DNA from: Tubulanus polymorphus
Taxonomy: Eukaryota; Animalia; Nemertea
NCBI RefSeq assembly: GCF_964204645.1
Contig: NC_134029.1
Span: 12,178,850 to 12,242,849, forward strand
DNA length: 64,000 nt
Direction: 5' to 3'
Part shown: in pieces, positions 19,647 to 64,000 of the stretch
Numbering within the stretch: position 1 is the first letter of the stretch
Layout of the letters: every line of letters begins with the position of its first letter
Made by a program: the position numbers and the translations under genes
Notes under the pieces: generated by a model
Told to the model about the DNA's origin: nothing
The model's input: only the letters and a program-made list of their open reading frames with translations
Databases searched by the model: none

Positions 19647-19730
19647 CAGTGATACAACTGACGTGGTATCTATCCTTGAAGCTAGCTGATGACGAGTGAC
19701 GGATTGATAGGATCAACTATTCGGTGGCTG

Positions 19731-20184: not shown

Positions 20185-20216
20185 AATTTTAACTTTAATA
20201 AATATTTATTATATAA

Positions 20217-25328: not shown

Positions 25329-25334
25329 AATAAG

Positions 25335-39800: not shown

Positions 39801-41582
39801 CGCGACAATTCAATATTTTGGTTTTATCGCCCGCGACAATTCATTATTTTGGTTTTATCGCCCGAGACCATTCATTACTTTGGTTTTATCGCCCGCGTCA
39901 ATTCATTATTTTGGTTTTGTCGCCCGCGACAATTCATTATTTTGATTTTATCGCCCGCGACGATTCAATATCTTGTTTTTGTCGCCCGAGACAATTCATT
40001 ATTTTGGTTTTATCGCCCGCGACAATTCATTAGTTTGGTTTTATCGCCCTCGACAATTCAATATTTTGGTTTTGTCGCCCGCGACAATTCATTAGTTTGG
40101 TTTTGTCGCCCGCGACAATTCAATATTTTGGTTTTGTCGCCCATGAAAATTCAATATTTTGGTTTTATCGCCCGCGACAATTCATTACTTTGGTTTTATC
40201 GCCACCGACAATTCATTATTTTGGTTTTGTCGCCCGCAACAATTCATTATTTTGGTTTTATATTTTGTTTTTGTCGCCCGCGACAATTTTCTTTTTTGGT
40301 TTTATCGCCTGCGACAATTCAATATTTTTGTTTTATCGCCCGCAATTATTCATTATTTTTGTTTTGTCGCCTGAGACAATTCATTATTTTGGTTTTATCG
40401 CCCGCGACAATTCATTATTACGGTTTTATCGCCCGCGACAATTCATTATTTTAGTTTTGTCGCGAGCGACAATTCACCATTTTGGTTTTGTCGCCAGCGA
40501 CAATTCATTAATTTGGTTTTATCACCCGGGACAATTCAATATTTTGTTTTTATCGCCCGCGACAATTCATTATTTTGGTTTTGTCGCCCGAGACCATTCA
40601 TTACTTTGGTTTTATCGCCCGCGTCAATTCATTATTTTGGTTTTGTCGCCCGAGACAATTCATTATTTTGGTTTAATCGCCCGCGACAATTCAATATTTT
40701 GGTTTTATCGCCCGCGACAATTCATTATTTTGGTTTTATCGCCCGCGACAATTCAATATTTTGGTTTTATCGCCCGCGACAATTCATTATTTTGGTTTTA
40801 CATTTTGTTTTTATCGCCCGTGCCAATTTTTTTTTTGGTTTAGTCGCCCGCGACAATTCAATATTTTGGTTTTGTCGCCCGCGATAATTCATTAATTTTG
40901 TTTTATCGCCCGCGACAATTCAATATTTTGGTTTTATCGCCCGCGACAATTCATTATTTTGGTTTTATCGCCCGCGACAATTCATTATTTTGGTTTTGTT
41001 GCCCGAGACAATTCATTATTTTGGTTTAATCGCCCGCGACAATTCAATATTTTGGTTTTATCGCCCGCGATAATTCATTATTTTGGTTTTATCGCCCGCG
41101 ACAATTCATTATTTTGGTTTTATCGCCCGCGACAATTCAATATTTTGGTTTTATCGCCCGCGACAATTCATTATTTTGGTTTTATATTTTGTTTTTATCG
41201 CCCGTGCCAATTTTTTTTTGGTTTTGTCGCCCGCGACAATTCAATATTTTGGTTTTATCGCCCGCGACAATTCATTACTTTGGTTTTGTCCCCCGAGACC
41301 ATTCATTATTTTGGTTTTATCGCCCACGACAATTCATTATTTTGGTTTTGTCGCCCGCGACAATTCATTATTTTGATTTTGACGCCAGCAACGATTCAAT
41401 ATTTTGTTTTTGTCGCCCGAGACGATTCATTATTTTGGTTTTATTGCCCGCGACAATTTAATATTTTTGTTTTATCGCCCGCGAGAATTCATTAGTTTGG
41501 TTTTATCGTCCGCGACAATTCATTAGTTTGCTTTTGTCGCCCGCGACAATTCAATATTTTGGTTTTGTCGCCCGCGACAATT
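36868..41582 (+). repeat. 31-bp satellite (TTTGGTTTTRTCGCCCGCGACAATTCATTAT)n with higher-order block duplications; resumes at 42984-43305
   Basis: Roughly 150 visible units. Core TTGTCGC-CC-GCGACAA is palindromic. Variant units recur in the same order. Confidence 0.97.
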
Positions 41583-41584
41583 AT

Positions 41585-42983
41585 TTTTCAGTCCAATTGG
41601 GACTTTAGTCCCAGTGGGCTATTGCGTTCACTTTTCGTCCGTCCGTCCGTCCATAGACGGAATCCAGTTATTTTGGGAAGTTTTGAAGACGCTTCAAGGT
41701 AATGTCTTGATATTTGGTTTATACATGTATCTACCCTAGACACATCGTCAGCCCAAAAACTGGCCCTGTCAGATTCAAGATGGCTGACTGGCAGCCATTG
41801 TTGTTTGCCAAAATCAGCACTTTTTAAACATTTTCGAAGTTTTCGTGGGAAATTTTGAAGACGCTTTGATCAATTACCTTGATCTTTCGTTTGAATCTAC
41901 CAAAGGCCCATCAGCATAAGAAAATTGGGTCGATCTGACTCAAGATGGCCGTCCTATGACCTTTTTAGTGCCCAAAATGTCAATTTTGGCCAGAATTCTA
42001 GGTCCTGTAGCTTCCTACTGGTTTGCCATTTCTCATTGCAATTGCTGATGGGTATTCTTTAGAGAGGGATGTTTTATACCTGGGAAAGGTATTTTTGATC
42101 AGCCAATTATGTCGCAATTGGCGGCCATCTTAGTGTCATCAGTACTCATTCGTAGGTGGGAAAAAAGATACTTAAGCATATTGTGTTGCTATATTCAATT
42201 GGAAAGTTGTAGCCCATAACGTGTTCTATGATTTTGGTGAGTTTCAAGGTCATTGGTTTTTGTATGTGGCCATCAGGGGGCGTTGAATAATACAATAACT
42301 TAGTATTGCTATATTATATTTGTACCAAGGCATATTTTGTTACCATGATCAATCGCAAAGTTGTAGTTCATGACATCGTCTATGATTGTGGTGAGTTTTT
42401 AAGGACATTAGTTATTCCATATAGTCACCAGGGGGCGTTGAATAGTAGAAAAGCTTAGTTTTTCCTTATTAGATTGGTACCTAGGCATAGTTTGTTACCG
42501 TGATCCATTGCAAAGTTGTAGTTCATGACAACGTCTATGATTTTGGTGAGTTTTTAAGGACATTAGTTATTCCATATAGTCACCAGGGGGCGTTGAATAG
42601 TAGAATGGCTTAGTATTTATTTCCTTATTAGATTGGTACCTATTGGCATATTTTGTTACTATGATCAATTGCAAATTGTATTTCATGACATGTACTACTA
42701 TTGTGGTGAGTTTTAAGGTCATTTGGGTTTTGCATATGGTCACCAGGGGGCGTTGAATAGTAGAATAACTTAGTATTTCCATATTAAATTGGTAACGAGG
42801 CATATTTTGTTATCACAATCAATTACAAAATCATAGCTGCTCACATGTTCTATGATTGTGGTGGGTTTCAAGGTCATTGGTTTTTGTATATGGTCACTAG
42901 AGGGCGTTATGTATTGAAATTGTTAGATTGTTGAGCATTTTAAACCACTTCCCAAGTGAGCATGGTGTCCCTGGACCCCTAGT
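41585..42983 (+). mobile_element. HINE-B (DINE-1-like Helentron derivative) inserted in the satellite
   Basis: Head hairpin tgggactttagtccca, (GTCC)n microsatellite, internal ~157-bp tandem repeats, subterminal tcccaagtg, 3' hairpin ending CTAGT. Confidence 0.7.
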
Positions 42984-45812: not shown

Positions 45813-46853
45813 ATAAAAGACCAATGGTCTTGTAGCTCACCTGACCATTAACTAATAGACAGTTTAAAGACTTGTTATATCCCATTTCTAAAATGGATTA
45901 GACGCTGGTCTTATTGCAAGGGCTGGTGCCGTGGCAAGATGGGAAGTGGAAAATCGATATACACATTGCCTTTCAAACCTTCAAAGGAGCGATCAAAATC
46001 AAACGGCAACTCTTGTTTTAATAACCATATTTATTTTCAGATAATGATATCCATATCAAAAGATAGGATAGGCGCTAGGCCTAATCATATCAGAAGTTTT
46101 GTCTTTTATATATAGAATATTGTTTGAAACGTGTTTTTTGAAAAAATCTATAATTCCTGCTTCAATGAGTCGAGGTGGTGATTCATTCTTGGGGTACCGG
46201 TATCTGTAAAACAATGCGTAAGATCAATAGAAATAAAGTGAAAAATAAATTGCATTGAATTGAATTGCAATCACAGTGTAGTAGACAAGAGGATTGATAT
46301 CCTGTCCGTCGGTCCCGTACTAACATCTCGCTGTAGTAGACATTTTTGGGGCACTAAAGACCAATGACAATCATTATTCATAGAATATCTTACCTTCAAT
46401 GAGCAGAAATACCGTGTAAATACACGTGTGAATAAACCAGGAAATGCGGTAGTGCGCGGTGTCACTAGTGTACGGAGACGCATCGGGGTCATTCACAAAT
46501 ATAATCAAAGCAACCGAAACTTTGATCTGTTGAAACACAATGTCAACATTGCGACTAAAATATTATGAAATAAATTTAACCTTGATCTCGATTGATTCGA
46601 ATTTAAAACAAAAATCCACCATTCGGCGAATTCTGTCCACACTTGAATTTTAAAAATGTTCCTAATAGGCTACCATATATCTTGGATCTATCCAAGAAAC
46701 GATAGTTCATAGGTCGAGCCACGTTATTAGAGAGTTAGGCGAGAGTCAGACCCCTGCGTTTAGACCGGAGTAATTATAAAAGTGGGGTTTCAGATCAGAG
46801 TACGAGAGTACTAAACACCACTCATCACCACAAGTAATTTTTTTCCCTAATAA

Positions 46854-49800
46854 ATGGGAGAGAGTGAGTTCCAACTAGAAAACAATAATGTCAATAAAAA
46901 TCAATATTATTGTCAATATTGTAAAAAATACATCGATAAATCTAATAAAACTAAACATGAAAAATCTTCAAATCATATAAAAAATGTAATAGATTTTGAA
47001 ACTCCAGAAAATTCCAATGAAAGAAAAGAAAGATTAGAAAATATGAATGTGGATGAAATAAAATGAAATGAAGTTTGTAATGAATTTATAGTAAAAAGGA
47101 ATTATAATAGACATCTCGAATCACAAAAACATTATAAAAATTTGAGTAATAATGTTTTAGGATTAGAATATTTTGATAATAAACCTCAACAAGTAAAAGA
47201 ATCAACTTCAAAAACTAAATCCATTTCAAATAAACCTTACATGGAAAATGTTAGAAATTATATTGATTCACTAGAAATAAAAGATACAATTGAAATCTTA
47301 GAAACATTACATAGTAAAATTGGTCCTGCAGCTATTATATTTAGATTTTTTAAAGGTACAACAATAGAAGATTATAGTAAATTTAATGAAATAATAGAAA
47401 AAATAATAGATTTGATAACAGATGTTGAATATCCAAAAATTAGTATCTCTGGGAAAGTAAGTTTTATAAAGTCAGAAGAAAAAATGAATTACAATATTCA
47501 AACACTCTCTGAAGAAATAATTTCAAAAACACAAATAAAAGAGAAGTTAGAAAAAATATTAAATGAATTTAAACGTCATATTGAAGAAAGATATTTTGAG
47601 GGTTCTGGCTTAACATTGAACGAAATTATATATTTAGATTTAAATGTTTATAATACAAAAAGGAATAAAACATCAAAAAGTAATAAAATGTTTAAAAATG
47701 ATTCAAACTTTACAACAGAAAAGGATATTAAAGCATCATCTTATATTAAATTACCATTTACAACAAAAGCAGTAATAAATGTTCAAAATGAAGATAATAA
47801 ATGTTTTCTATGGTCAATTATTAGTTGCTTACATCCAACACAGGAAAATGTTTGTAGAATAACGAATTACCGGAAATATGAAACATTATATAAAATTGAT
47901 CAATATCCAGTAACTATAAAAATGATTCCTAAAATAGAAAAAGTTAATAATTTAAAAATAAATGTATTCGAATTAATGCAATTACCAAAGACAAAAGGTG
48001 AAAATATTAAAGATTATACATTGGAAGCTTTATATTTAACAGAATATTATGATGATGAAAATGCTATAGATTTGTTATATTACAAAAAAGATGAAAATGA
48101 ACATTATATGTGGTTAAAACAAATTGATTTATTCTTTAGAACAACAGAAAGTGATCATCATCGTAAAATTTATCTATGTAGAAAATGTTTATCTAAATTT
48201 ATGACTGAGAATACATTACTAAAACATAAAGAATTATGTGATAATAAAGATTTTTGTAAATTAATAATGCCAACAGAAAAAGATTATAAATTGAAATTTA
48301 CTAATCATAAATTTAAAAATATTGTTCCATTTGTAATTTATGGGGATTTTGAATCGTTGAGTAAAGAATTAACTGATCAAGATAGAAAAGAAATATATAA
48401 CAAAAAGCAATTATTAAAATCAATGGATAAAGGAAATGATTTAAATGAAGACATAATACAAGACCCACCAATTATAAATACAATTTAAAAAGTTCATCAA
48501 AGAGCTGCTGCTTATGGAATTTATATAAAATCAAATTATCCCGAATTATATGAAAGTCAATATATTTCTTTTAGAGGTGAAAATGTAGTTAATGATTTTT
48601 GTGATAAAATTATTGAATTAGAAAGTGATTTTGCAAAATTATTAAACAAAAATAAAAGAATAGTTATGACAAAAGAAGATGAAATTGATTTTAATTATGC
48701 AACTCATTGTTGTTATTGTGAAAAACGTTTTTATTCATTTGATAAAAGAGTTAGAGATCATGATCATTTAAATTCAAAATATCGTGGAGCTGCTCATGAA
48801 GATTGCAATTTACAAGCTAAAAAAGTAAATTTCGTACCAATATTATTTCATAATTTATCAGGATATGATACCCATCTATTTATAAAACAATTATCGGGAA
48901 AATTGGGCGCAATTAATCAAGAAATAGAAGAATATAATGCTATGAATGAAGCAAATGTAAGAAAATATGATTTTAAACTATTAGCTAAAACATCTGAAAA
49001 TTATATTTCATTTCAATTTGGTTGCATTAGATTTTTAGATTCTTATAGATTTCTAGCAAGTTCATTAGATAATTTATCAAAATCATTAGTTGATAATGAT
49101 TTTATTATAACTCGATATTATTATCCAAATGACCAAGATTTTAAATTATTGAGATATAAAGGCGCAATTCCTTATTCATTTTATAAAACACATGATGATT
49201 TTAATGTAACAGAATTATTAAAAGATCAATTTTATGATAAATTAAAAGAGGAGTATGTGAAAGATGAAGTGTTTAATAGAACATTAAATATTTGGGACCA
49301 TTTTAAGATGAAAAATCATGGTGAATTAGTTGATTTATATTTAAAATCAGATGTTATGATATTGGCTGACATATTTGAAAAGTTTAGAGAAGTTAATCTA
49401 AACCATTTTAATGTTGATCCTTGTTATTGCTACTCTAGTCCTGGTTTAACCTGGCAATGTGGTTTAAAATATACAAATGTAGAATTAGATTTATTAAAAG
49501 CACCAGATATGGTTTTATTATTTGAAAAATCAATTAGAGGTGGAATTAGTGGTGTTATGGGAGATAGGTATTTTAAAGCAAATGATGAATATAAATTATT
49601 ATATATTGACGCCAATAATTTATATGGTTGGGCAATGATGCAACCTCAACCATATAAAAATTTTATATTAACAGAAGTTGAAAATGATGATGAAACTGAT
49701 TGGGAAAGCGCAATTGCGAGTTTAAAAGATGAAGCACCAATTGGTTATTTCTTTGTAGTTGATTTAGAATATCCTGAAAATATAAAGTTTAAAACAAGAA

Positions 49801-51923
49801 ACTTACCTTATTGCCCAGAACATTTAACTGTAGATGATAGTTATTTAAGTGAATACCAGAAGAAAATAAAACCGAAAGATCATGTTTTTACAGAAAAATT
49901 AATACTTACTCAAAATAATAAATATAATTATATTGTTCATTATAGAATGTTAAAATTTTATCTAAAACAAGGAATGAAATTAAAGAAAGTACATAGATAT
50001 ATTGAATTTAATCAATCGAAGTGGTTAGAAAAATATATAGATTTCAATACTCAACAGAGAACAATATCAAAAAATGATTTTGAGAAGGATTTCTTCAAAT
50101 TAATGAACAATGCATTTTATGGTAAAACATGTGAAAACATAAAAGATAGAAACGACATTGAGTTAGTGAATAATTCTGAACGATTGAGACACCTACAATC
50201 AAGCCCCAGACATTTACAAAATAAAAGATTTGAAGATTATTTGACCGCGGTAAAATTAAAAAGAACATCATTAAAATTTAATAAACCCATTTTCATTGGT
50301 TCGACTGTTTTGGAAATTTCAAAGCTATTGATGTATAATTTTTATTACAATGTTTTACAACCATTGTTTGGGGAAAAACATATAGAAATTCTGTACTTCG
50401 ATTCTGTAACGGCCGACACCCCAATATTATTAAAATGTAATAATAAAATATTGGTAAGAAGAATTTCAGAAATAATTCCAAAACAAAATGAATGTTATAT
50501 TTCATATGGAGAAAAAGAATTAATACAAATAAATGGTTTAATGGATGTTTGGACAAGAAATGGATGGAAAAAATTAAATAATATTATTAGACATAAAACA
50601 AATAAGAAAATCTATAGAGTTAGAACTAAATTAGGATTTGTAGATGTTACAGAAGATCATAGTTTAATTAAACAAAATGGCGATGAAATAAAACCAACTG
50701 ATATAAAAATTGGAGATGAATTATTACATAAAAGATTTTACCCAAGAATGAATCATATGTCATTTGATGAAATAATTGATAATATTTATAATATAGAACC
50801 TGAAACATTGGAAGAAAAAGAATATTTTATCAAAGGATTTTTCATGGGTGATGGTTCAGCAGGTGTGTATAATTATGTTAGTGGAACTAAATATTGTTGG
50901 TATTTATGCAATCAAGACTTAAAATTATTAGAAAGAATAAAGAAATTCTGGGAAGAAGTTTATTCACATAAAACATTCAAAATCATAGATGTTATGAAAT
51001 CAACAGCAGTTTATAGAATACTTGTAAATAATCCTAAAGATTTTGCTATAAAATATAATGATGAATTCTATATTCATGCAATAGTTAAAAGTAATACTTC
51101 AACAAAAGAAAAGATAGTTCCAGATTATGTATTAAATGCAAAAAATAATTTAAGAAAATGGTTCTTCATTGGATTCTATGCTGCAGATGGTTCAAAAAGT
51201 TTCAAAAACCGCAAAACAATATCTTTAGCTCAAAAAGGAAAAGTTGCTATATCAGGATTGAATATATTATGCTGTTCATTAGGATTTAATATGAATATTG
51301 GATTGATTAAATCTAAACCAAATTGCTTTAATTTAAGCCATGTAGAAAATGAGTTAACAGAAGAAGTTAAAGATTTATTTGAAATATATAACCCAACTGA
51401 CTATGTTTATGATTTATCAACAGATGATGGAACATTCAATTCTGGGTTCCCATTAATCCAAAAAAATACCGACGCCTACATATTAAAGATAAAAACTGAT
51501 AACATAACAAAAGACTTAAAAACATTAAAACATCATTTCGACTTTAGTAATTACCCTAAAGATCATGAATTGTTTAGTAATGATAATAAAAAGATTCCTG
51601 GTAAGTTTAAAGATGAATTAGGAGGTGATGAAATGATTGAATTTGTTGGGATAAGAAGTAAAATGTATAGTTATAGAACAAAAGATCATGAAGCTAAAAA
51701 GTTAAAAGGAATAACAAAACATGTGGTTGATAAACATATAGAATTTCAAGATTATATAAAGTGTTTATATAAATCAATTGTAATGAAACACAAAATGAAT
51801 TGTTTAAGATCAGAAGATCATGAGATGTACATTAATGAAGTTGAAAAAACTAGTTTAAATCCATTTGATGATAAAAGGCATATTTTAGATGATGGTATAA
51901 AAACATTACCTTATGGTTATTAA
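46854..51923 (+). pseudogene. P3 protein-primed DNA polymerase B, one frame with two premature stops, intein-containing
   Basis: ORFs 46854, 47142 and 48666 are in the same frame, separated by TGA 47064 and TAA 48486. Contains Zn fingers, CFLWS..HY protease-like region, YGDFE exonuclease, RDHDH..YRGAAH..CN insert, DANNLYG, KLMNNAFYGK, YFD|TD. Confidence 0.95.
50403..51467 (+). mobile_element. Intein (355 aa) with LAGLIDADG homing endonuclease in pPolB motif C
   Basis: Starts SVTADTP, block B VTEDH, GFFMGDGS and GFYAADGS, block F YVYDLST, ends QKN|T. Absent from the P1 homolog (ILYFDTDSYIL). Confidence 0.95.
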
Positions 51924-53221
51924 AACATAAAATCAATATCATCAAACTCGAAATCATTATTAGCTTCTTCATTTTCATTTAATTGTTCAGGTTCTTCTTC
52001 CATTCCATTTTTCTCATTTAAATAAAGTTCTATCTTGTTCCACATTTCATCTCGCTCTCTTTGTTTCTTTTTGTTTGTTAATTCATCAAATGGAATTATA
52101 ATATCTAGGTTTAAATAATTTACAATCTTATTTAAAAAAAATTCATAATTTATTGAATCTGTTATTCTATTTTCTAAATGATACATTAATATTTGTTTAA
52201 ATATTTTTTTTATATTTTCCATATCTTCTTCTGTTAATTTAGGTTTTTCATAATAATCGTTAAATAATAAATATAAATACATTTTCTTTTGTTTTGTGTT
52301 AAATGTTGGTGGAATAATTGTTTTTATAATATCTTTTTTAGTTATTTCACCATTTTTATTTTCTATTATTTTCATTTTTTCAAGCCATTGCTTATATTCT
52401 GGTGTATGATCTTCTATAGAAAATATTTTAAAAATTTCATCAAGATAATTTAATTTTGGATCTATAAGAAAATTTCTAGTTTTTTCTTCATCCCATAAAT
52501 TCTTTTGCCATCCACAATCAACACAAAATAACACAGTACCTTCTTGTCTTAAGGTCGCATAACTACATTGTGGACATTTTTGTTTATTATTTATTGGTAA
52601 TAGATCTTCATTAAGCTCTTGGTATTTTCTTACGTTTTCTTTATGTTTTATTGTTCTATTATGTAGATTTGAATTACTTGTTGTAATAATCAATTTACAA
52701 TATTTACAATAATATGTTTTTCTTGTTAATTCATTATATTGTTTTTATAACTTTTCAACTGTTTCTTCATTATCTGGTAACGTTTTCTCATATTTTATTT
52801 TTTCTAATAAATTATTTTTTCTTTCATTGAATTCAGTTTCAAATTTATTAGAAATTTTATCTATATGTGCTTTACGAAATTGATGATTCTCCCAATCTTC
52901 TATATTGTCAGGGCTATATTTTACTTGACAAGGCTCACAGAAATTATTCTTTACATTATTCTTGTTATAAAATAAAAAAGGTTTTTTCCAAATAACTTCA
53001 GGTTCAACTTCAGCAGAATTACTATCAACATTAGCCGTTGCACCATTAATTCTACACTTCTCTGAATGTTTTTTAACATAATTTCTTGAGAATAATTGAT
53101 TACATTTTGGACAGTTTATTTTAGGGGGTTTATAATTTTCATCATGTTTTTTCATATGTCGAGCCTTATTACTTTTTCTTAGAAGTTCACCACAAATTTC
53201 ACATGCTATCTTCTCATCCAT
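51920..53221 (-). pseudogene. Multi-zinc-finger + VLTF3-like late transcription factor (one in-frame TAA at 52745)
   Basis: ORFs 52745-53221 and 51920-52693 are in frame. Contains CPQC...FCVDCG ribbon and PKL...IKKIF.QI...INYEFFLNKI...ERDEMWNKI C-terminal pattern. Confidence 0.6.
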
Positions 53222-53256
53222 TTATTAGGGAAAAAAATTACTTGTGGTGATGAGTG
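53219..53256 (-). promoter_or_regulatory. 36-bp leader motif CACTCATCACCACAAGTAATTT...ATAAATG (also at 46819, 63047-63084, 63334-63371)
   Basis: The same motif ends exactly at the ATG of four ORFs. Confidence 0.75.
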
Positions 53257-53278
53257 TAATTTTTTTATGTTATAAATA

Positions 53279-54076
53279 ATGGTAGAATTAAAAGAATACA
53301 GAATATTTGTTGATTCAAGAAGACTTACAAATTATAAATCTCATAATTTATTAGTTCAATTAGATAGAGAATTCAAGAATTGTGTAGATTTAAAATTAGT
53401 AAATATAAGTTTATGTAACTCATTTTATAATATATCAGATAAAACTGATGAACATAGAAGCCTTCTTATTTTTGATAAACTTGAAAAAAAATGGATTCAA
53501 CTTATGCTTACACCAGGATTATATAATTTAGAAACATTAGCGCAAGAAATTAATAGAAAAGCTCGGATTAGATTAGGTAATGGTAATTCCAAATTTAATA
53601 TTAAATTCATAAAAAGTGAGAGCTCTAATAAAATTAAAATAAAGCTTGATGATGAACTTATTAAACTTGATAAATCTGATCCATTGATGACAAGAAGACA
53701 TACTTACACGGTAAAAAAACCTATAGCTAAACTATTAGGAATTACTCCAAATCAATTTGGTGGAAACAAACACGGTAACTCAAATATAATACCTTTTACA
53801 CACTTTTATATTTATTGCAATTTAATCGATCCTACAAAAACATTCGAAGCAACTAAAGATACAACATGTAATTCTAGTATATTAAACATTTTACCATTGA
53901 AGAATGTTAAACAATTTGGAACGCAATTAAATTATAATTTAGCTGAATGTGATTTCAAACCTTGTATTCCTCAATTTAATAATTTTAAATTAGAAATAAG
54001 AAATCATAATGGATACTTAATTGATTTGAACAACTTTCCTGTAATTTATGAATTAGTTATAAGATGTAAAGAGTAA
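53279..54076 (+). CDS. P3 putative minor capsid (penton) protein
   Basis: Close homolog of 16774-17535 with a variable central region. Confidence 0.7.
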   Translation: MVELKEYRIFVDSRRLTNYKSHNLLVQLDREFKNCVDLKLVNISLCNSFYNISDKTDEHRSLLIFDKLEKKWIQLMLTPGLYNLETLAQEINRKARIRLGNGNSKFNIKFIKSESSNKIKIKLDDELIKLDKSDPLMTRRHTYTVKKPIAKLLGITPNQFGGNKHGNSNIIPFTHFYIYCNLIDPTKTFEATKDTTCNSSILNILPLKNVKQFGTQLNYNLAECDFKPCIPQFNNFKLEIRNHNGYLIDLNNFPVIYELVIRCKE

Positions 54077-54092
54077 TTTTTCACCTATATAA

Positions 54093-54452
54093 ATGAATAT
54101 AACTGTTGGACCGAGTATATGTTTTGGGTTTGATTTTAAACGTGAGAAAGAAATGAAATTTAACATTAATGATGTAATTACACATATAAAAAATATTGCA
54201 CTTTCTAATGAAACAACATTTGAGTATGAAACAACAATAGATAAAGAAACTTTAAATGTAGAAAAGATTACTAATTTAATTAGAGAATCTTTAAGATTTT
54301 ATGAATTAGATGAAGATTTTATCATCGATGATATCAAAAAAATAATAATTGAAATATATGATAATCATAAAAGTAGTAATGAAATAAATGTTGAATTAAT
54401 CATAAATAAGTTAACTAAATATTTTGAAGATAGTAATTTTTTTGATAAATAA
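54093..54452 (+). CDS. P3 hypothetical protein
   Basis: TATAAATG start; conserved with P1. Confidence 0.75.
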   Translation: MNITVGPSICFGFDFKREKEMKFNINDVITHIKNIALSNETTFEYETTIDKETLNVEKITNLIRESLRFYELDEDFIIDDIKKIIIEIYDNHKSSNEINVELIINKLTKYFEDSNFFDK

Positions 54453-54674
54453 ATGAGTGATAATAAGTGGATAATAACTGGATTATATAATGGCGCATTA
54501 CTATCAGTTGGAACTGTTGGTTATTCAATGGTATTAAAAAAAGTATTCAAAATGGGAAGTGTTAATGTTGATAGATTTGATATAAATGATATTTTGAAAT
54601 TAACGTTAGCAGTTACTTTATCTAATTTAACTATTGATTATTTAGAAAAACAAAAATATATTCCTCCCATATAA
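54453..54674 (+). CDS. P3 small hydrophobic protein
   Basis: TAAATG start; near-identical P1 homolog; two hydrophobic segments. Confidence 0.75.
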   Translation: MSDNKWIITGLYNGALLSVGTVGYSMVLKKVFKMGSVNVDRFDINDILKLTLAVTLSNLTIDYLEKQKYIPPI

Positions 54675-54698
54675 ATGCATAATTTTTTTGCTAAATAA

Positions 54699-55121
54699 AT
54701 GGCTTCTGCAATTATAACTATTATAGGATCGGCAATTGTTAACGCTTTAGCATTTACTGGTGGTGGTTATTTATTTAAACATATTGATAAAAATAGTTCA
54801 TTAGGAGAACAAAGAAGACATAACTTAGCGTTAGAGAAATACAATAAAGCTGCAGAAGAATATAGAGAAAAGAGACAAAACTATATGGATTACATCAATA
54901 AAGAATTATACGATCAGAAGATTTCACATAGAGATTTTCAATCAGTTGATGATGCAATGAGTTTATATAACGCAGTAACAAATAAAGAAAAATTACATCT
55001 ATACAAACCTAAATTATCAGATTATTATACCCCAAGTAAAGAACAACAGAAATATGAAATAATATGGATTTTAGGTGGAACTGTTATTGTTATATTTGTT
55101 GCTTATAAGTTTACTAATTAG
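54699..55121 (+). CDS. P3 putative membrane protein
   Basis: Hydrophobic N-terminus (GSAIVNALAFTGGGYLF), coiled middle, C-terminal TM; TAAATG start. Confidence 0.75.
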   Translation: MASAIITIIGSAIVNALAFTGGGYLFKHIDKNSSLGEQRRHNLALEKYNKAAEEYREKRQNYMDYINKELYDQKISHRDFQSVDDAMSLYNAVTNKEKLHLYKPKLSDYYTPSKEQQKYEIIWILGGTVIVIFVAYKFTN

Positions 55122-55140
55122 TAATTTTTTTTCTAAATAA

Positions 55141-55567
55141 ATGGAAGATAAAGTTGATAGTATTGATATTATTCCTCATGATATAAATAAAACTAAATTA
55201 AAAACATATTTAGAAAAACAAATATTAGAATTTGAAAGTGACTTAAAGATAAAAAAGAAAAAATATTTAAAAAGTAAAATTATATATTATTTGAGGTTCG
55301 GTTACAATTAGTTCTGTAATAACATTTCTAGCAATATTCAGCCCATTAACACCTTTAGCTATATCAATTGGTGTGTTAGGATTAAGTTCAAGTGTTTTAA
55401 CTGGTATAAGTTCAAAATTAAATATAAAAAGTAATAAAGAAAAAATCAAAGCTAATATAAAAGAAATTAATAAATTAAAGAACACACTAGATTATATAAT
55501 AAGTTTAAATGGTCATATAACAGTTGAAGAACAAGATAAATTATTAAAAGAATTAATAAATTATTAA
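55141..55567 (+). pseudogene. P3 two-TM protein, disrupted near 55290
   Basis: TAAATG start at 55141; a frameshift/stop precedes a hydrophobic hairpin and ORF 55373-55567. Confidence 0.6.
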
Positions 55568-55583
55568 TTTTTTAATTATATAA

Positions 55584-56912
55584 ATGGGGTTTCCAAAAGC
55601 TTTCCAATATAATAAATCAATTAAATATAATATTCCAGCAATAGATTTTAAGAAAAATATTACATATAAAAATATAGTTTTAAATTCATTAACTAATTTA
55701 GAAATTTATGTTAATGAATCACAGTTTTTTATTTCTAAAATGGAAAATATATTTAATACATATGAAGTTACTTTTACTCGAGATGAATATCATAAATATA
55801 AAGTAAAATCTAATATGAAGTATTGGCAGAACCAATTAAATTTTGCTGTTTATTGTGCAACAACAGGATGTGGAATAAGTTGGAATGATCATTTAAATAA
55901 CTTAGATAAAAATTTGAAGTATTCTGATTTAAAATTAATTCACACAATATTTAGATTTCACACATATTTTCAAATCAGAATAATATTAAATGCATTAGAA
56001 TGTCCTTTACCCGGGTCTAAATATTTTAAAGAATTGGATAATAATATTAATATATCCAAGTTTTATAAAATATGTAATGAATTTAATATAAATATTAATT
56101 CCGATTTCAGAGCGCATGGTAAATTGCAAGGTGTTGGTGAAGAGTTTGAAATAAAAAGAATTGATTATATGCATAGAATTTCAGCTTATCATAATTATAA
56201 AATTGAAAATAATAATGGTTGGGTTAATTTCATTTTAGAAAATGGTGAAGGTTTTACAAAATCAGGTATACAAAGAATAAATCAATCTATTAGAATTTAT
56301 TTGATATGTATTTTAGGCGCTCAAGTTGAAACAAGATCCCCAATAATTGGAAATGATAACACTTCATTCGATGCGCAGAAACAGTTTAAAGTTTTATTTG
56401 AAGATTCCATACATAATGATAAAAATAGATCGATTCCAGAAAACATTATAAGATATCAAAATTATTTAGATAAATCTCATGTAAGACTTAATTATTGTAT
56501 AGGCCCTAATCTATTAATTATTTCTAATGATTTAGTATTAAAGATGGGAAACATAATTGGTTATAATAATCTAATTAAAACTGCAACAATAAATAATTCA
56601 TTTGGATTGAATGATATAAATAAAAAGATTATTACTGCTCCAAAATTAATGGAAGGTGAAAAAAATAAAAAACACATTCAATCAACTGAAACTAAAACTA
56701 ATAATATTAAATTGGATAATGATTCCAAAATAAAAGATTACAATACATCAGAAAATATTAGAACTGATAATGGTGTCATATGGCACCCACACGGTGATAT
56801 TCAACATGATGTAATTAAACTAAATGATGATAATAAATTCCATGAAAATACTAAATTAGCTATAACTTGTATAGGAATTGTTATAGGAGGAATATTATAT
56901 TTTAAATTTTAA
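55584..56912 (+). CDS. P3 442-aa hypothetical protein with C-terminal TM
   Basis: Long intact ORF, TATAAATG start, WQNQLNFAVYCATTGCGIS motif. Confidence 0.8.
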   Translation: MGFPKAFQYNKSIKYNIPAIDFKKNITYKNIVLNSLTNLEIYVNESQFFISKMENIFNTYEVTFTRDEYHKYKVKSNMKYWQNQLNFAVYCATTGCGISWNDHLNNLDKNLKYSDLKLIHTIFRFHTYFQIRIILNALECPLPGSKYFKELDNNINISKFYKICNEFNININSDFRAHGKLQGVGEEFEIKRIDYMHRISAYHNYKIENNNGWVNFILENGEGFTKSGIQRINQSIRIYLICILGAQVETRSPIIGNDNTSFDAQKQFKVLFEDSIHNDKNRSIPENIIRYQNYLDKSHVRLNYCIGPNLLIISNDLVLKMGNIIGYNNLIKTATINNSFGLNDINKKIITAPKLMEGEKNKKHIQSTETKTNNIKLDNDSKIKDYNTSENIRTDNGVIWHPHGDIQHDVIKLNDDNKFHENTKLAITCIGIVIGGILYFKF

Positions 56913-56928
56913 TTTTTTTATTATATAA

Positions 56929-58361
56929 ATGGATGTAGAAGGTGGAGAAGATATTGGAATGGATCCTTTTGATGAACCTAACATAACTGATGAACAACCG
57001 CCTGATTTTGATGAAACAAGTTTTAATGATGGTAATGAACCAGAATATAACAATAATTTAAATATGCCTGATTATATTAAAAATGCTGAATCACAATTAA
57101 ATCCTGAAAATTTAGACCCAGATTTAGTAAAACAAGATTTAGATAATTTAAACAAAATACCTAAATTAGAAGATTTAATTGAAAAATCTAATTTTAACAT
57201 AAATGATGAAGACGTTGGACTTTTAGCAGATCAATTAAAATTTTTAGATAATGGTAAATGTTATTATCGTTTGAAAGGTGATTATTATATTGATATCACT
57301 TATAAAAATAATAAAAATAAAATATTATCAGAATCAACTTTAGAAAAATTAAAACCAGATAGAATTAAAATAATAAGTAATAGTAATGAAATAACTGATG
57401 TTACACAAAAAGAAATAGATGATAATATAGATGTATTTAAACAAAGAATTAATGAATTATTTGAAATAATCAAAAAGAAATCAGAAACAGAAACAACTTC
57501 TGAACAGAATATAACTTCCAAAAATAGTAAACATAGATCAAATAAAGTTCCAATTGAAAAACTTTTACCGAATGGATTACTTGATGCAACAGATCAAGAA
57601 TTAGAAGATTTAGATATATTTTCTGATAAAGCAATTAGAGAAATTATTAGTATAAGACTTGCATCTGATAAAATTGCACATAATAAAAGTATAAGAGATA
57701 AAAAAATTACGTATTTGGAAAAAGAATTAACTGATAAAAATAAAGAAATAGAACAATTAAAGTCTGATTTAGATCATCAAGTAATTGATGAAATAGAATA
57801 TAGGCAAAAGAATTACGTTTAGAAAAAGAAATTAGTAATTTAAAAGATAATTTAGAAGTACAGAAAGAAGAAATTAAATTATTATTAAAATCATATGATT
57901 ATAATATTAATAGATTAAAAGTTATTTTTAAAGATTTGTTGATTAAACCAAATTCTGAAATATCATTAAAAGACAGGATAAAGTTATTATTTAAATTAGA
58001 AGGAATAACAATTCTTTCAATTCTAACAGCTGTAACTATGTTATTTACAACAATTGGTTTAGCAATATCAAATGCTTTAAAATCTACTCCTACTCCAAAT
58101 AAACCAGATAAACCTCCAGGAAATAATTCTATACAAGATAAAATTAAAGATGGTTTAAAGAAATTAGCAAAATATTTATGGGAACTATCTAAAAAATCTG
58201 CTGCAGCATTACCAGGAATTATTGCATCAATTGTTGGTTTTATATTGAAATCTGCTGGAAACATTATTAACTTTGCTGCTGAACATATTATTTTATTTTT
58301 AATCACAGTTGTAAGTGCTATTATTTTTGGTTTAGTAAATATGATATCAAAAAATAAATAA
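56929..58361 (+). pseudogene. P3 acidic/coiled-coil protein with C-terminal amphipathic/TM helices, frameshift near 57815
   Basis: ORFs 56929-57822 and 57936-58361 are bridged by coding-like sequence. Confidence 0.65.
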
Positions 58362-58381
58362 TTAATTTTTTTGTTAAATAA

Positions 58382-59627
58382 ATGAGTGGGAGTTATATAA
58401 GTCCTTCTAAGATTTCTAGAATATCTAATGCTATTAAAGCAGAAAGATCACATCATATAATTACTCATAACCCTTCAAATATTAATCCCGATGAAACTTT
58501 ATGTTAGAATTCCGAGATTAACACAAAATACTTTTTATGTTCCAAATAGTATTTATTTATCAGCTGATATAAAAGTATCTGGTAATAATAATAATTATGT
58601 TGTTGATAATGTTGGAAGATATTTGATTAAAAAGTTAACAATAAAGATTGGACCAGAAACAGTTTTCTCATTAGATGATTATAATTTATTTATGCACTAT
58701 AAAGATTTATGGTTAACTAAAGAAAATAGAAATAATATGATATTTCAGGGTATTCAATCAGAAAACCAAAATAAATTAAGATCAGAAGCTAATAGCGCAA
58801 TATTAACAAATGATGTAGATAAATTGATAAAAAGTATATATGGAAGCAAATATAAAATTCCATTAGACTTTGAATTGATAAATAATAATGCACCTTTATA
58901 TAAATACGCAATTCAAGAAGATATTATATTTGAGATAACATTTGCTCCTGTAAATGAAATTGTATTATCTAGCGTTAATAAAGATATGAGTTATAAATTA
59001 TCGAATATATGTTTAGAATATGATACAGTAACTGATGAAAATATTGCTAGAACAATTCAAACTCAATACAATCAAGGATTTTCATTATTATATGATTATA
59101 TTGATAAATTTAAAACTGTAACTATTAATGCAAATGATGAAATAATAAATGAGAATATTAACTTTCCTAGAAGATCTATTAAAGGTATATTAATATTTTT
59201 TACTATTGGAACGTATACTAATGGTGCAATAAATGTTGATAATTATTATAATCCTGAAATAACAAAAGTAGAAATAACTATCGAAGGAATAGCAAATAAA
59301 ATATTTTGTCAAGGAATGAGAATGATAGATCAATGGCCAGAAATTAGAAAACATTTTATGAATGAAAAAGTAAAATCATCTGAAAATTGTAATATTAATC
59401 AAATTGATTATTATACCGGTAATAAATATGCATTATGGTTAGATTTTAGAACAACTGAAGATAACTTATTACATGGTTCTGGAAAAAAACTACAGAACAC
59501 TAAAGATGGAATACAATTATTCATGAAAAAGAATGAAGGAATCAAAAATTTTAAAATGCACATTTATATTATATCTGACGCGCAATTAAATATTGTAAAT
59601 TCACAATTAGATAGTATTCAATATTAG
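58382..59627 (+). pseudogene. P3 major capsid protein (double jelly-roll), frameshift near 58500
   Basis: TAAATG at 58382 gives ITHNPSNINPDETL, then YVRIPRL after a 2-nt slip. Motifs IPLDF, ICLEYD, RSIKGIL, ALWLDFRT. Confidence 0.8.
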
Positions 59628-59657
59628 AAATATAAAGTTAAAATTAAGGATATATAA

Positions 59658-60786
59658 ATGAGTGGTAAAAAAACTCCTAATACTAAAGAACAATATTTAA
59701 GAAATTTATATTACAACCCTGAGAGTTCGGTTGCTTATTCTTCTACTAAAAATATATGGTGTAAAGTAAAACAAGATAAATTAGATAAGATAATCCCACA
59801 AAATTTAGTTAAATATAAAGATATAAATGAATTTATGTTAGAACAACCAACATATACAACACATAAAAAAAATTGTTAGAAAATATAAAACTCGTAAAAC
59901 TATGGTAAGTTATGTAGATCAACAGTGGCAAGGAGATTTAATTGATATGAAAAATGTTAAGAAAGATAATGATGATTATTGGTGGTTATTGAATATAATT
60001 GATATTTTTAGTCGTTATGTATGGAGCTTCCCACTTTATAGAAAAGATGCTGTACAAACATCACATGTTTTAAGAAAATTTCTTTCAGGTGGTAAACTAA
60101 AACCAGAAAAAATTCAATTTGATGATGGAAAAGAATTTGATAATTCATTAGTTCATGGACTTTTAGATTTTCATAATATTAAATATTTTTCAACAAAATC
60201 GGATAAAAAAGCAGCAGTTGTTGAACGATTTAATAGAACATTAAGAACAAGAATGTGGAAATATTTTACAGCAAATAATACTTTTAAATGGATTGATGTT
60301 TTACCAAAATTGATAGAAGGATATAATAATTCTTATCATTCTTCTATTGGAATGAAACCTATTGATGCTAGAAAACCTGAAAATGCTGAAATTGTTTGGA
60401 ATAATTTATATGGAGCATTTCTTGTTGATGATTTTGGTGAACCTAAATTTAAAGTTGGTCAAAATGTTAGAATTTCTAAGTATAAAAAGATATTTGACAA
60501 AGGATACGATCGAAATTTTACTAGAGAAATATATAAAATAAAAAAGGTAATAACAACAAAACCATATGTCTATAAATTAGAAGATTTAGATGGTGAAGAA
60601 GTTGATGGATATTTTTATGAAGAAGAATTAAGTTTAACTACTGAAAATCTAGAACAAGAATATAAAATTGAAAAAGTACTAAAAACAAAAACTGTTAAAA
60701 GAAAAAAATATTCTTTAGTAAAATGGGTTGGATGGCCAGATAAATTCAATGAATGGATATTATCAAGTAAAATTAAAAATATATAA
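59658..60786 (+). pseudogene. P3 rve integrase + chromodomain, frameshift in A-run near 59870
   Basis: WQGDLIDM, IDIFSRY, FDDGKEF, VERFNRT (DDE intact), LVKWVGWPDKFNEWI. Confidence 0.93.
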
Positions 60787-61395
60787 ATGAATAAAGAATT
60801 ATTTATATTTGAGCCTCATAATATGTTAATTTCTGGTGTAACAAATTGTGGAAAAACTTATTTTATACTACATTTATTAGAAACTGTTTATGAAAACTAT
60901 TTTGATAATATAGTATTATTTTGTCCAACATATGAATTTAATCAAACTTATGATAAAAATATTACTAGGAATAATAAATTTATTATATTAGATCCTAAAA
61001 CAGTAAAAGAAAATTTAGATAATTGTATAAAAATAGCAATTGATATTTATAAAGGATCAAATACATTATTTATCATAGATGATTGTGCTAATCTACATGA
61101 TTCAAAAGTTAGAGAAAGTGAGTTATGTTATTTAGCTTTTTCTGGCAGACATTTTGGGATAACAACTTGGGTTTTAAATCAAAAATATAATTCAATTGTT
61201 AAAGACTTTAGAGAAAACATTAGATTTCTAGTTTTATTCTACAATAAAGATAGAAAATCGATGAAAAATGCACTTAAGGAAAATGATATTATTCCACATG
61301 ATTTACATAATGAATATATGGATAAGTTGAAAAATATTAAAAGATCAAAATTACTATTTAGATTACAACACCCATTTAAATATGAATTTATTTAA
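60787..61395 (+). CDS. P3 packaging ATPase (A32/FtsK-like)
   Basis: GVTNCGKT, FIIDD, SGRH, NQ motifs; intact ORF. Confidence 0.93.
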   Translation: MNKELFIFEPHNMLISGVTNCGKTYFILHLLETVYENYFDNIVLFCPTYEFNQTYDKNITRNNKFIILDPKTVKENLDNCIKIAIDIYKGSNTLFIIDDCANLHDSKVRESELCYLAFSGRHFGITTWVLNQKYNSIVKDFRENIRFLVLFYNKDRKSMKNALKENDIIPHDLHNEYMDKLKNIKRSKLLFRLQHPFKYEFI

Positions 61396-61399
61396 ATTC

Positions 61400-61650
61400 A
61401 ATTAGTTTGTTAATCTAGTTGAATTCTAGTTATTAGTAGTTGTAACAAAAATCAAATAGATTTAACAATATTTTAACTAGCTTGTTAATCTAGTTGAATT
61501 CTAGTTGAATTCTAGTTGTTAGTAGTTGAAACAAAAATCAACTAGAATGTAACTAGAAATAAACAAAAACAACAATATTTCAACTAGCTTGTTAATCTAG
61601 TTTAATTCTAGTTACATTCTAGTTGAATTCTAGTTGCAACAACACAACTA
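61400..61650. repeat. Intergenic array of CTAGTTGAATT-type repeats
   Basis: Multiple ctagttgaattctagtt and aactag units. Confidence 0.8.
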
Positions 61651-61667
61651 ATTTGTTTGTTATATAA

Positions 61668-62258
61668 ATGAGAGGTGAAAAGAAAATAAAATCTAAAAAT
61701 GGTGATGTTCAAATTGAAAAAACTTTAGATGATTTAGGAATAACAGAAACAAAATTAACTCCAGATGATGGTGCTTTAAATAATGTTACAACAAATAATA
61801 ATTATGAATATTATCTTTATTGTAAACATCAATTAGAAATATTAATAGCATCTGGAAAATGTAAAAATTTTATCGGTAAAAATTTAACTTATAATGAATT
61901 AGATACAATGAAATCAGATGAAATTATTAGATTATTTAAGATTTATGAATCCGCGAGAACAGCTAGAATTAATGACGCGATATCAGAAAATGTAGTAAAA
62001 GGTTATAGTAAATTATGTAATTATATACTACCAATTGAAGATGAAAATAGATTATATTCTGATTTAAAAAATGATTATTTAGTTATGACTGAATTAAATA
62101 AATGGATTGGATATTTATCATTTCAATTAGGTGGATTTATGACATTATTATCAACTGGAGTTATAACATTTTCAAATATTGAAAGTAAAAATATTTCTGT
62201 AATAAATGAGCGAGGTGAAAGAAGTGAAGAAAAAACCGAGAACTCAGAAACAAATTGA
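61668..62258 (+). CDS. P3 conserved hypothetical protein
   Basis: Homolog of 24365-24967; TATAAATG start. Confidence 0.8.
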   Translation: MRGEKKIKSKNGDVQIEKTLDDLGITETKLTPDDGALNNVTTNNNYEYYLYCKHQLEILIASGKCKNFIGKNLTYNELDTMKSDEIIRLFKIYESARTARINDAISENVVKGYSKLCNYILPIEDENRLYSDLKNDYLVMTELNKWIGYLSFQLGGFMTLLSTGVITFSNIESKNISVINERGERSEEKTENSETN

Positions 62259-62559
62259 ATGGTCTCGACAATTAGGAATTAAATCACAAGAATATAAAAA
62301 AGCTGTAAAAGAAAAAATAAGTAATAAAAATGTTAATAAAAATGGTGAAAATATTGTTATTTCTACTCCTTCTGATAGTAGAATATTTGATAAATATTTA
62401 TATTTTACAGTTGGATTTGTAATTGTATTCATTTTGATTGGGTGTAATTGGTATAAGAAATCAAATAAAATTCATGATATAAGTAATTCTGAAACAACTG
62501 CTATTAAAAATGAAAATACTTCTGAAATTCCAAAATTAACAATAAAAAAAATGGATTAA
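62206..62559 (+). CDS. P3 basic/TM small protein
   Basis: Homolog of 24960-25328; TAAATG start. Confidence 0.75.
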   Translation: MSEVKEVKKKPRTQKQIEWSRQLGIKSQEYKKAVKEKISNKNVNKNGENIVISTPSDSRIFDKYLYFTVGFVIVFILIGCNWYKKSNKIHDISNSETTAIKNENTSEIPKLTIKKMD

Positions 62560-62722
62560 TATTTTAGAAAAAAAGCAAAAAAAAATAATTTTTTTTAATT
62601 AATTGAATATTAATTGAATATCTCACTACTTTTGTCTATCTATGAGGAGCAATTAAATTGTCCAGATAAGTCATTTCGGATTCTAGATATTCATTATTTT
62701 TATTAATTTATTTTTTTAAAAT

Positions 62723-63049
62723 TTAATCAACAATTTCTAAATCATGATGGCCATCTTCATTTTTTCCATGATAGATTATTTTAAATCCTTCTAAATCTTT
62801 TAATTCCTCTGTACTCAATGAAACCCATTTATCAGGTAAAAATACTTTAAATTCTCGCGATGTACTAACATTACAGTAGCTTAAATTAGCTGATACTTTC
62901 TCTCCATATTTAGTTTTTATCTTTTCTAATTTCAATATTTTATGTTCAATTTCTTTTGTAACATCAACTAACTTTTTTATTTCAAATTGTTTTTTTGCTG
63001 GTTTTATTCTGTTATTTATTGTTGCTAAGAATGCTTTTCTATCTCCCAT
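62723..63049 (-). CDS. P3 small protein, probable OB-fold ssDNA-binding
   Basis: Homolog of 16406-16759; preceded by the 36-bp leader motif. Confidence 0.6.
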   Translation of the reverse strand: MGDRKAFLATINNRIKPAKKQFEIKKLVDVTKEIEHKILKLEKIKTKYGEKVSANLSYCNVSTSREFKVFLPDKWVSLSTEELKDLEGFKIIYHGKNEDGHHDLEIVD

Positions 63050-63132
63050 TTATAAGGAAAACAAATTACTTGTGGTGATGAGTGGGATTACTTCCCCTTG
63101 TATATAACAAACACGTTATTACGCAGCTGTTG

Positions 63133-63336
63133 TTACGCGCACTCACTGTTTATATGTGACACAATTTTACTACGTAATATTTCTAAAATTTCAATTATAT
63201 CTTTTATTTCTAGTGAATCAATATAATTTCTAACATTTTCCATGTAAGGTTTATCGATGTATTTTTTACAATATTGACAATAATATTGATTTTTATTGAC
63301 ATTATTGTTTTCTAGTTGGAACTCACTCTCTCCCAT
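63133..63336 (-). CDS. Mini-ORF in the right TIR: internally deleted copy of the pPolB N-terminus
   Basis: Joins sequence matching 46854-46940 to sequence matching 47235-47321. Expression unknown. Confidence 0.5.
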   Translation of the reverse strand: MGESEFQLENNNVNKNQYYCQYCKKYIDKPYMENVRNYIDSLEIKDIIEILEILRSKIVSHINSECA

Positions 63337-63802
63337 TTATTAGGGAAAAAAATTACTTGTGGTGATGAGTGGTGTTTAGTACTCTCGTACTCTGATCTGA
63401 AACCCCACTTTTATAATTACTGACCGGCCTGGAGGTAAATCTAGACGTTTTTCCAGCTAGAATTATGTGAAAATGTTTGAACAACACCCAAAACTTTATA
63501 CTACTAGCAGTCCGGGTCTATTTTGATTTCACAGAAACGCATGTATACAAAAAGAACGGCAATTTGCTTCGATTTTGGTATATTTTTGATTATTTCACAA
63601 AAATACGAGTTCAGAACTCTATGAAATTTTCAGATTGTAAAATAGATACTATATGACAACTCCGATAAAAAAATCAGATCTCAGGACCATCTAGATAAAA
63701 AGTGTGCCACCCGTTTTACTGAATTTTTTTGCGATAGGAAAATGCATTGGTAGGATGACGTCATCAGCTAGTGATAGCAAAAGCGAACCATAGGTTCGCT
63801 AA

Positions 63803-64000
63803 AAAGTATTGAAAACAAAACATTACGTGGTAAGAAATATTCTTTGGTTGAATATAAAGGGTATGATGATAAATTTAATGAACGGATTTTATCTAGTAAA
63901 ATTAAAAGAATAAATGAATAAAGATTTATTTATATTTGAACCACATAATAGGTTAGTTACTGGAGTAACAAATTGTGGTAAAACACATTTCATATTAGAT
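63803..64000 (+). pseudogene. P2 integrase chromodomain end and ATPase start (runs off the window)
   Basis: Homologous to 26292-26490; GVTNCGKT visible. Confidence 0.85.

Follow-up and report, generated by a model that had tools for sequence, protein, structure and literature searches.

Identification of an intein in a Polinton DNA polymerase

The window, a 64,000-nucleotide stretch of DNA from Tubulanus polymorphus, a ribbon worm (Nemertea), contains an intein with a LAGLIDADG homing-endonuclease domain, inserted at the pol-c site (catalytic motif C) of a protein-primed family-B DNA polymerase (pPolB) that is encoded by a Polinton element. The initial observation, made in a first-pass annotation from the nucleotide sequence alone, was confirmed: the pol-c intein is complete and real. 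Considered jointly, the reading that a full-length LAGLIDADG intein occupies motif C of the Polinton pPolB, is predicted to self-splice, likely homes and likely descends from a giant virus is held to be quite probable.

The intein is encoded at 50403–51467, on the forward strand like all parts described in this section. Translation recovered every feature that the first-pass annotation had listed, namely an in-frame insert of 355 codons without any stop, lying between YFD and TD of polymerase motif C (YFD|TD) inside a long open reading frame, with Ser1, TEDH, two LAGLIDADG motifs, YVYDL, a KN end and Thr+1. The N-terminal splicing region (50403–50666) opens with Ser1 (block A) and includes T83-E-D-H86 of block B (50649–50660). 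The first LAGLIDADG motif, GFFMGDGS (50835–50858, intein residues 145–152), carries the acidic D150 and ends a modelled helix (136–150), and the second, GFYAADGS (51171–51194, residues 257–264), carries D262 within modelled helix 248–266. The C-terminal splicing region (51402–51470) comprises block F, YVYDL (residues 334–338, with D337), a GFPL signature and K354-N355, followed by Thr+1 (51468–51470). The insert is of the class-1 type: the block A nucleophile, the terminal Asn and the +1 residue are Ser1, Asn355 and Thr+1, and the block B TxxH and block F Asp are provided by T83, H86 and D337. T83, D85, H86 and D337 were invariant in 39/39 aligned rows. The GC content (25.2% in the intein, 25.5% and 25.2% in the exteins) gave no compositional signal.

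The domain assignment was supported by profile hidden Markov models (HMMs), a check that the first-pass annotation had proposed, and both Hint-type and LAGLIDADG matches were obtained. TIGR01445 (intein_Nterm) matched residues 2–88 with 31.8 bits against a cutoff of 24.5, and Pfam LAGLIDADG_3 (PF14528) matched with 31.3 bits against 22.5; Pfam Intein_splicing matched at E 1e-6 but under its cutoff (29 vs 35.8). The better of two sequence matches in the PDB was the archaeal PolB intein PI-PkoII (2cw7, E 6e-6). An AlphaFold model built on a 39-row alignment (pLDDT 88.8, pTM 0.90) showed a two-repeat alpha/beta core flanked by beta-rich ends, and the top five Foldseek matches to it were all homing-endonuclease inteins (TliVMA, PI-PkoII, PhoVMA, PI-PfuI and PI-SceI; E 2.5e-17 to 8e-13), followed by mini-inteins and I-DmoI. 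The insert is thus predicted to fold as Hint + LAGLIDADG, with the two helices bearing D150 and D262, the PF14528 match and the fold matches to I-DmoI, PI-SceI and PI-PfuI all characteristic of LAGLIDADG endonucleases. Chance resemblance to an intein was ruled out by the HMM scores, the PDB sequence match and the fold matches, and a Hedgehog/Hog Hint or bacterial intein-like domain was rejected as the insert has a LAGLIDADG domain and splits motif C.

The polymerase gene that holds the intein spans 46854–51923 (PF03175, E 6e-20). Its frame contains two in-frame stops, at 47064–47066 and 48486–48488, which were absent from the account given in the first-pass annotation. Because both lie upstream of the intein, the window copy likely yields no polymerase precursor, and this copy of the polymerase is likely dead.

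Continuity of the insert, host genome and copy number

Independent contigs cross the 5′ junction of the intein (X1 record 4, X2 record 10 and X3 record 18) and raw-read depth is unbroken through the insert, so an origin as artefact or frameshift was rejected. The continuity across the junctions on which the first-pass annotation had made its claim depend therefore stands at the 5′ end, whereas at the 3′ end none of the longest of more than 2,000 contig pieces crosses the junction by 31 bases on each side. In homologues such as P0006 (75% identical), the intein end is joined to the C-extein. The intein boundaries are fixed, since an empty allele (LYFD|TDSY) is found in a second Polinton of the window and motif C is contiguous in 141 of the 150 pPolB representatives nearest to the extein.

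The proposed animal nuclear setting was borne out by the last coding stretch of the host gene alpha-methylacyl-CoA racemase (AMACR; 2229–2627, forward strand; PF02515), which is 99% identical over 132 residues to a protein from a 24.9-Mb contig of Tubulanus polymorphus, the only match at E 1e-20 among 144 candidates. The Polinton with its intein is integrated in the ribbon-worm nuclear genome. The second Polinton (about 11969–27527) belongs to the same family and is decayed, with pieces of pPolB, capsid-like protein, integrase and ATPase interrupted by other repeats. Its DNA is 71–91% identical in blocks to that of the intein-bearing element, and its pPolB DNA is 72% identical to the filled copy upstream and 80% downstream of the intein site. 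The empty site itself, ILYFD|TDSYI, occupies 15834–15863 on the forward strand, with the cut point at 15848/15849.

The intein was present in four runs of one study and in one run of a second study with the same species label (X5, about 12% of which was read). In the latter, the intein was covered 209-fold on average and single-copy DNA 8.1-fold; the resulting ratio of about 26 is rough because the two mappings used likeness limits of 85 and 90. Counted in this way, by read depth only, there are roughly 25 intein copies per genome. Two of the read joints listed bypass the intein (36 and 58 reads), and because of these joints and the empty site in the second Polinton, filled and empty alleles share one genome. 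Synonymous changes made up 7 of the 10 read differences inside the intein, found among the 40 of 575 rows listed, where 19% would be expected (P 6e-4); this points to purifying selection acting on the intein across its copies.

Distribution of the intein family

Protein searches with the intein gave 45 matches of similar length and 300 longer ones, and 120 were listed. Among the matches listed, the nearest relatives were all in protein-primed polymerases with the intein at the identical site: P0096 (62%), P0097 (cluster of 136), P0098, P0099, P0100 (cluster of 121), P0104, P0105, P0065 (cluster of 17) and the P0004 cluster (55). The Polinton rows were followed in the same list by RNA-primed PolB inteins at YGD|TD, with 41–44% identity and below. 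The large carrier clusters, in which contigs reach 1 Mb, resemble multi-copy elements of eukaryotic genomes. Polinton inteins came from at least eight pPolB lineages, with mutual identities of 41–78%, and the 14 full-length ones measured 333–355 residues, with no mini-intein among them.

The intein is rare in Polintons, as seen from the contiguous motif C in most of the 150 pPolB representatives mentioned above, none of which gave an intein HMM match. The remaining 9 lacked the motif, and 8 of these were shorter than 640 residues and ended in unrelated or truncated sequence. Scans of JGI metagenomes and IMG/VR gave no Polinton-type carrier among the 69 of 117 loci with extractable inteins; a few rows labelled pPolB in these scans show YGD sites and were counted as RNA-primed. 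Fragments of a Polinton-type pPolB with an empty site (cluster P0259) are catalogued as Bartonella sp.; their contigs measure about 1 kb, and they are likely host DNA carried into bacterial assemblies.

Relatives of the intein were also seen in other proteins: an ADP-ribosylglycohydrolase (P0129, GGD|TD), a phage-like protein without Pfam family (P0038, WMD|TD), type II topoisomerases (P0101, P0203 and P0204, DQD|TD or DAD|TD) and Pol delta of Chloropicon primus (P0202). Judging from these flanking residues, D|TD is the apparent target of the family across unrelated genes, and the presence of the family in Pol delta, topoisomerase and ADP-ribosylglycohydrolase means that it moves between unlike genes.

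Filled and empty sites in related polymerases

Filled and empty alleles coexist at 97–99% extein identity. When 13 other members of the P0097 cluster were compared, 6 were filled, 4 had an empty motif and 3 were truncated or without the motif. Between the filled P0097 and three full-length empty cluster-mates (97–98% identical), 8 of the 22–31 differences lay no further than 10 residues from the site (P below 1e-8); over the same distance, no difference separated P0097 from the filled members. A patch of this kind would result if a diverged donor had converted the site or if the empty site had escaped, and it fits either direction. In a second pair, P0233 is filled and P0236 is empty, at 99% identity.

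P0098 belongs to a different polymerase class, with exteins only 24–25% identical to those of the window and an intein 49% identical, and its intein groups with that of the window (97/89). Its polymerase also carries a VSR-like motif, so that two nuclease inserts are present in one Polinton-type polymerase. This motif presumably resembles the pPolB2 inserts of Jeong et al.

An extein tree was built from 82 rows: 9 were filled, and the other 73 came from 82 empty candidates (the top 80 representatives and 2 cluster-mates). The exteins grouped with pPolBs, and 8 of the 9 filled polymerases fell in one clade (0.996), intermixed with 11 empty ones. The single recent jump into this particular element that the first-pass annotation had implied was not upheld: the window intein is instead one member of an old Polinton clade, whose hosts span at least eight lineages of pPolB and in which filled sites stand beside empty ones.

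Phylogeny of the inteins and probable donor

For the intein trees, 187 extracted inteins were reduced to 109 (320–450 residues, near-duplicates removed), from which sets of 54 and 38 were picked by hand. Polinton inteins were monophyletic in all three trees, with 14 rows and Shimodaira–Hasegawa (SH) support of 1.0 in the 109-row tree, 10 rows and an ultrafast bootstrap of 100 in the 54-row tree, and 8 rows and 100/100 (LG+C20) in the 38-row tree. In the 38-row tree, rooted on two phage PolB inteins, they lie inside a clade (96/87) of RNA-primed PolB inteins that includes those of giant viruses, and forcing them outside the RNA-primed PolB inteins was rejected (approximately unbiased test, p-AU 0.009). 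Of what the first-pass annotation expected from separate trees, the placement of the intein among RNA-primed PolB inteins and of the extein with pPolBs thus held, while the link to a sister group was weak (87/92, 46 and 0.87 in the 38-, 54- and 109-row trees). This sister of the Polinton inteins is likely the set with a C-terminal G[FYST][PA]L signature, which was found in 14/14 Polinton inteins, 17/87 RNA-primed PolB inteins and 0/8 others.

The GFPL-type set includes three loci from giant-virus metagenome-assembled genomes (MAGs), L001, L002 and L009, the last being the nearest named relative (Imitervirales IM_01, in the PMC8575486 supplement). Of six viral locus identifiers sought in that supplement, four were found, all Imitervirales. 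The viral loci, 37 in number, all come from IMG/VR contigs, and many of these are giant-virus MAGs. The window intein DNA is 72–77% identical over 150–180 nt to four giant-virus-type loci. A giant virus is the likely donor of the Polinton inteins. A near donor among prokaryotes or phages was rejected, as only distant matches were obtained there: 11 archaeal loci at E 9e-15 or weaker, and 2 of 50,697 phage records at 26–27% identity.

Proposed mechanism and alternatives

In the reading favoured here, splicing would start with an N–O acyl shift at Ser1 assisted by T83/H86 and D337, following class-1 chemistry as outlined in the accessible part of PMC7765530. Transfer to Thr+1 and cyclisation of Asn355 would follow, and YFD and TD would be rejoined. 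Because the insert splits the catalytic motif C, the polymerase would work only after splicing, and the intein would therefore be guarded from loss. Once free, the intein protein would cleave other Polinton copies at their empty site; with a filled copy as the repair template, the intein would then be transferred together with some flanking bases. Its origin would be one old entry from the RNA-primed PolB of a Nucleocytoviricota virus present in the same cell as a Polinton-type element, after which the intein would have been inherited, lost and regained, and would later have moved into a distant pPolB class at least once. The first-pass annotation pictured a co-infection and then passage into the germline of this host, but the first jump could have occurred in a protist, long before the lineage reached the worm. 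The more far-reaching proposal, that a clade of self-splicing pol-c inteins specific to Polintons and derived from giant viruses is still homing and spreads in multi-copy germline Polintons of marine animals, hopping between distant pPolB classes, is given an even chance.

Several observations weigh against the favoured reading. A penultimate His and a His in block F are the usual splicing helpers of class-1 inteins, although they are not universal; here the penultimate residue is Lys354, and block F has no His. Lys is penultimate in 50/87 RNA-primed PolB inteins and 3/14 Polinton inteins, with His in 10/14 of the latter, and the missing penultimate His is a trait of the intein family. With regard to homing, the P0233/P0236 pair has no conversion patch (0/6 differences near the site), holding the P0098 intein outside the other seven was not rejected (p-AU 0.057), and the intein and extein trees mostly agree among window-type pPolBs, which fits long vertical descent with little homing. 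The count of synonymous changes draws on 10 of the 40 rows listed out of 575. With regard to the donor, the root is soft because the two outgroup inteins sit on a very long branch; the support for the Polinton and GFPL-type clade varies as given above, the RNA-primed PolB rows are mostly without names, and members of the family are seen in Pol delta of a green alga (P0202), type II topoisomerase and ADP-ribosylglycohydrolase as well, so the donor may have been cellular. Giant-virus sites are alike to the empty Polinton site in 10–14 of 18 bp, and direct homing across such differences is called implausible in the available text of PMC549080. The window's own filled flanks match the empty site in 13 of 18 bp.

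The agreement of the two trees, with similar intein and extein identities (62.6/60.2, 65.7/67.2 and 77.4/81.6), together with the p-AU of 0.057 for P0098, would also be expected if the intein splices but no longer homes. It would then have been gained once and inherited vertically, the empty sites arising by precise loss or by recombination between Polinton families, and recombination with an empty donor could account for the P0097 patch. This explanation is considered unlikely: the window copy and the aligned Polinton rows retain the two acidic LAGLIDADG residues, mini-inteins are absent from the 14 full-length Polinton inteins, the P0098 intein is 49% identical to that of the window but its exteins only 24–25%, and the P0097 patch is centred on the intein site.

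Less likely still is a donor other than a giant virus, either a protist Pol delta-type polymerase or another carrier, or a flow from Polintons to giant viruses. The occurrence of the family in Pol delta of Chloropicon primus and in non-polymerase proteins, the weak sister-group support and the long root branch would suit such an origin, but each of the three trees puts P0202 well away from the Polinton clade, the outside position was rejected, RNA-primed carriers are far more diverse, and the 37 viral loci lie on IMG/VR contigs that include many giant-virus MAGs, with Imitervirales for 4 of the 6 looked up. Finally, that the element is a protist or viral contaminant joined by misassembly, which would void the animal claim, is very improbable: no listed contig covers the whole stretch, but the 6-bp target duplication is perfect and the inverted repeats match at 99%, the AMACR stretch, an LTR retrotransposon and the second Polinton lie on the same contig, and the intein recurs in two studies, in four runs of the first and, at roughly 26 times the single-copy depth, in a run of the second.

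Relation to known inteins and Polinton inserts

The assignment to the pol-c site made in the first-pass annotation agrees with the description of Mimivirus R322 in the accessible text of PMC549080, where the pol-c (position III) intein interrupts motif C at YGD|TDS, the same position as YFD|TD here. By that description, the two inteins have 351 and 355 residues and both have Ser1, an Asn end, Thr+1 and LAGLIDADG; a pol-c intein in an insect iridovirus is noted there too. Identity of the window intein to giant-virus MAG inteins is 41–44%. Unlike pol-c inteins of Nucleocytoviricota, the intein described here is hosted by a protein-primed polymerase in a 16.6-kb integrating element of an animal genome, and the Polinton inteins form a separate clade on a long stem. 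PI-PkoII is similar in fold (E 5e-16) as well as in sequence, but it has 537 residues, an archaeal host and only 14% identity in the structural alignment.

A nuclease domain within an animal Polinton polymerase has a parallel in the HNH and VSR inserts of pPolB2 (Jeong et al., 10.1101/2023.08.22.554363). In the available main text, those inserts are described as bare HNH or VSR domains, whereas a complete splicing domain splits the catalytic motif here, and the words 'intein', 'Hint' and 'LAGLIDADG' have no occurrence in it. Nuclease inserts in pPolBs have been suggested to stem from intein invasions (accessible part of PMC11161782; preprint PMC11071308), and the present intein would be the first concrete Hint-bearing case. 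It carries the pol-c allele beyond RNA-primed polymerases into protein-primed ones and is a sign of genes passing between giant viruses and Polintons. The reference cited in PMC11161782 for the pPolB nuclease inserts is taken by us to be Jeong et al.

On algal and protist nuclear scaffolds, inteins have been described within virus-like polymerase genes, another case of a viral polymerase intein in a eukaryotic nuclear genome. Those inteins were seen in Klebsormidium, Tetrabaena and a labyrinthulomycete that carry giant-virus-like genes (PMC10710043), compared with an animal, a Polinton, about 25 copies and empty alleles alongside in the present case. Hedgehog/Hog proteins likewise bring a Hint fold into animal genomes, but by the accessible text of PMC5784728 and PMC7765530 they have no homing endonuclease and do not ligate two exteins inside an enzyme. 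Inteins are stated to be absent from metazoan genomes in the section of PMC8529194 available, and their hosts are given as fungi, protists, plastids and large DNA viruses in that of PMC5784728. The word 'intein' does not occur in PMC8502044, PMC11131425 or 10.64898/2026.10.13.758929, and inteins are mentioned only generally in PMC12220804. In the literature, no account was found of a Hint-bearing intein within a Polinton or in any animal genome, most subscription journals and Repbase notes lying outside the search. The Polinton-specific intein clade is apparently undescribed so far, and the finding is likely novel.

Animal nuclear DNA thus carries a complete intein in some 25 copies, albeit in a mobile element and not in a host gene. 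The family also offers new inteins and LAGLIDADG nucleases. Since homing depends on an expressed protein and an empty target, pairs of filled and empty alleles allow homing, as well as the activity of Polintons in an animal germline, to be put to a direct test. If the intein is still homing, it would be a natural protein-splicing gene drive in an animal nucleus and a record of DNA exchange between a Polinton and a giant virus in one cell. Motif C of the host Pol alpha, delta or zeta genes might then also be within reach of the intein nuclease.

The Polinton element and neighbouring sequences

The whole intein-bearing element measures 16,653 bp (46769–63421). It is bounded by terminal inverted repeats of 175 bp, the left one at 46769–46943 (forward strand, beginning with AGT) being 99.4% complementary to the right one at 63247–63421 (reverse strand), and by a 6-bp target-site duplication, GACCGG, with perfectly matching forward-strand copies at 46763–46768 and 63422–63427. 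Besides pPolB, it encodes a retroviral-type (rve) integrase with chromodomain (59902–60786, forward strand; PF00665, E 3.5e-9; PF00385, E 6e-5) and an A32-type packaging ATPase (60787–61395, forward strand; PF04665, E 5e-13). These three genes, the inverted repeats and the target duplication identify it as a Polinton/Maverick, the type of host named in the first-pass annotation. Its GC content is low, 20–26% per kb.

A VLTF3-like gene, of a kind common to giant viruses, lies at 51920–52375 on the reverse strand (PF04947, E 2.6e-6, above cutoff). VLTF3 has been reported in coral polintoviruses, and exchange with giant viruses is cited, in the accessible part of PMC11131425. A probable major capsid protein is encoded at 58491–59627 (forward strand), with a weak match to Capsid_N (PF16903, E 0.008, below cutoff). 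Of the 17 element proteins scanned, 10 had a Pfam match at E 0.01, and none matched a maturation protease or minor capsid family. Near the element ends, 47230–47322 and 63162–63254 form a second, 93-bp inverted match (96%), the right end containing a shortened inverted copy of the polymerase 5′ region. Past the right target duplication, 63800–64000 resembles the end of a Polinton integrase and the start of the ATPase, as does 26300–26550, and is possibly a third fragment.

The same contig carries a decayed Gypsy-like long terminal repeat (LTR) retrotransposon at 7248–11889 with gag, reverse transcriptase, RNase H and integrase. A GIY-YIG-like C-terminal fragment without Pfam match was seen at 35787–36624, which we take to be typical of Penelope elements. 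Between the two Polintons, T-rich tandem-like repeats extend over about 5 kb (37000–42000).

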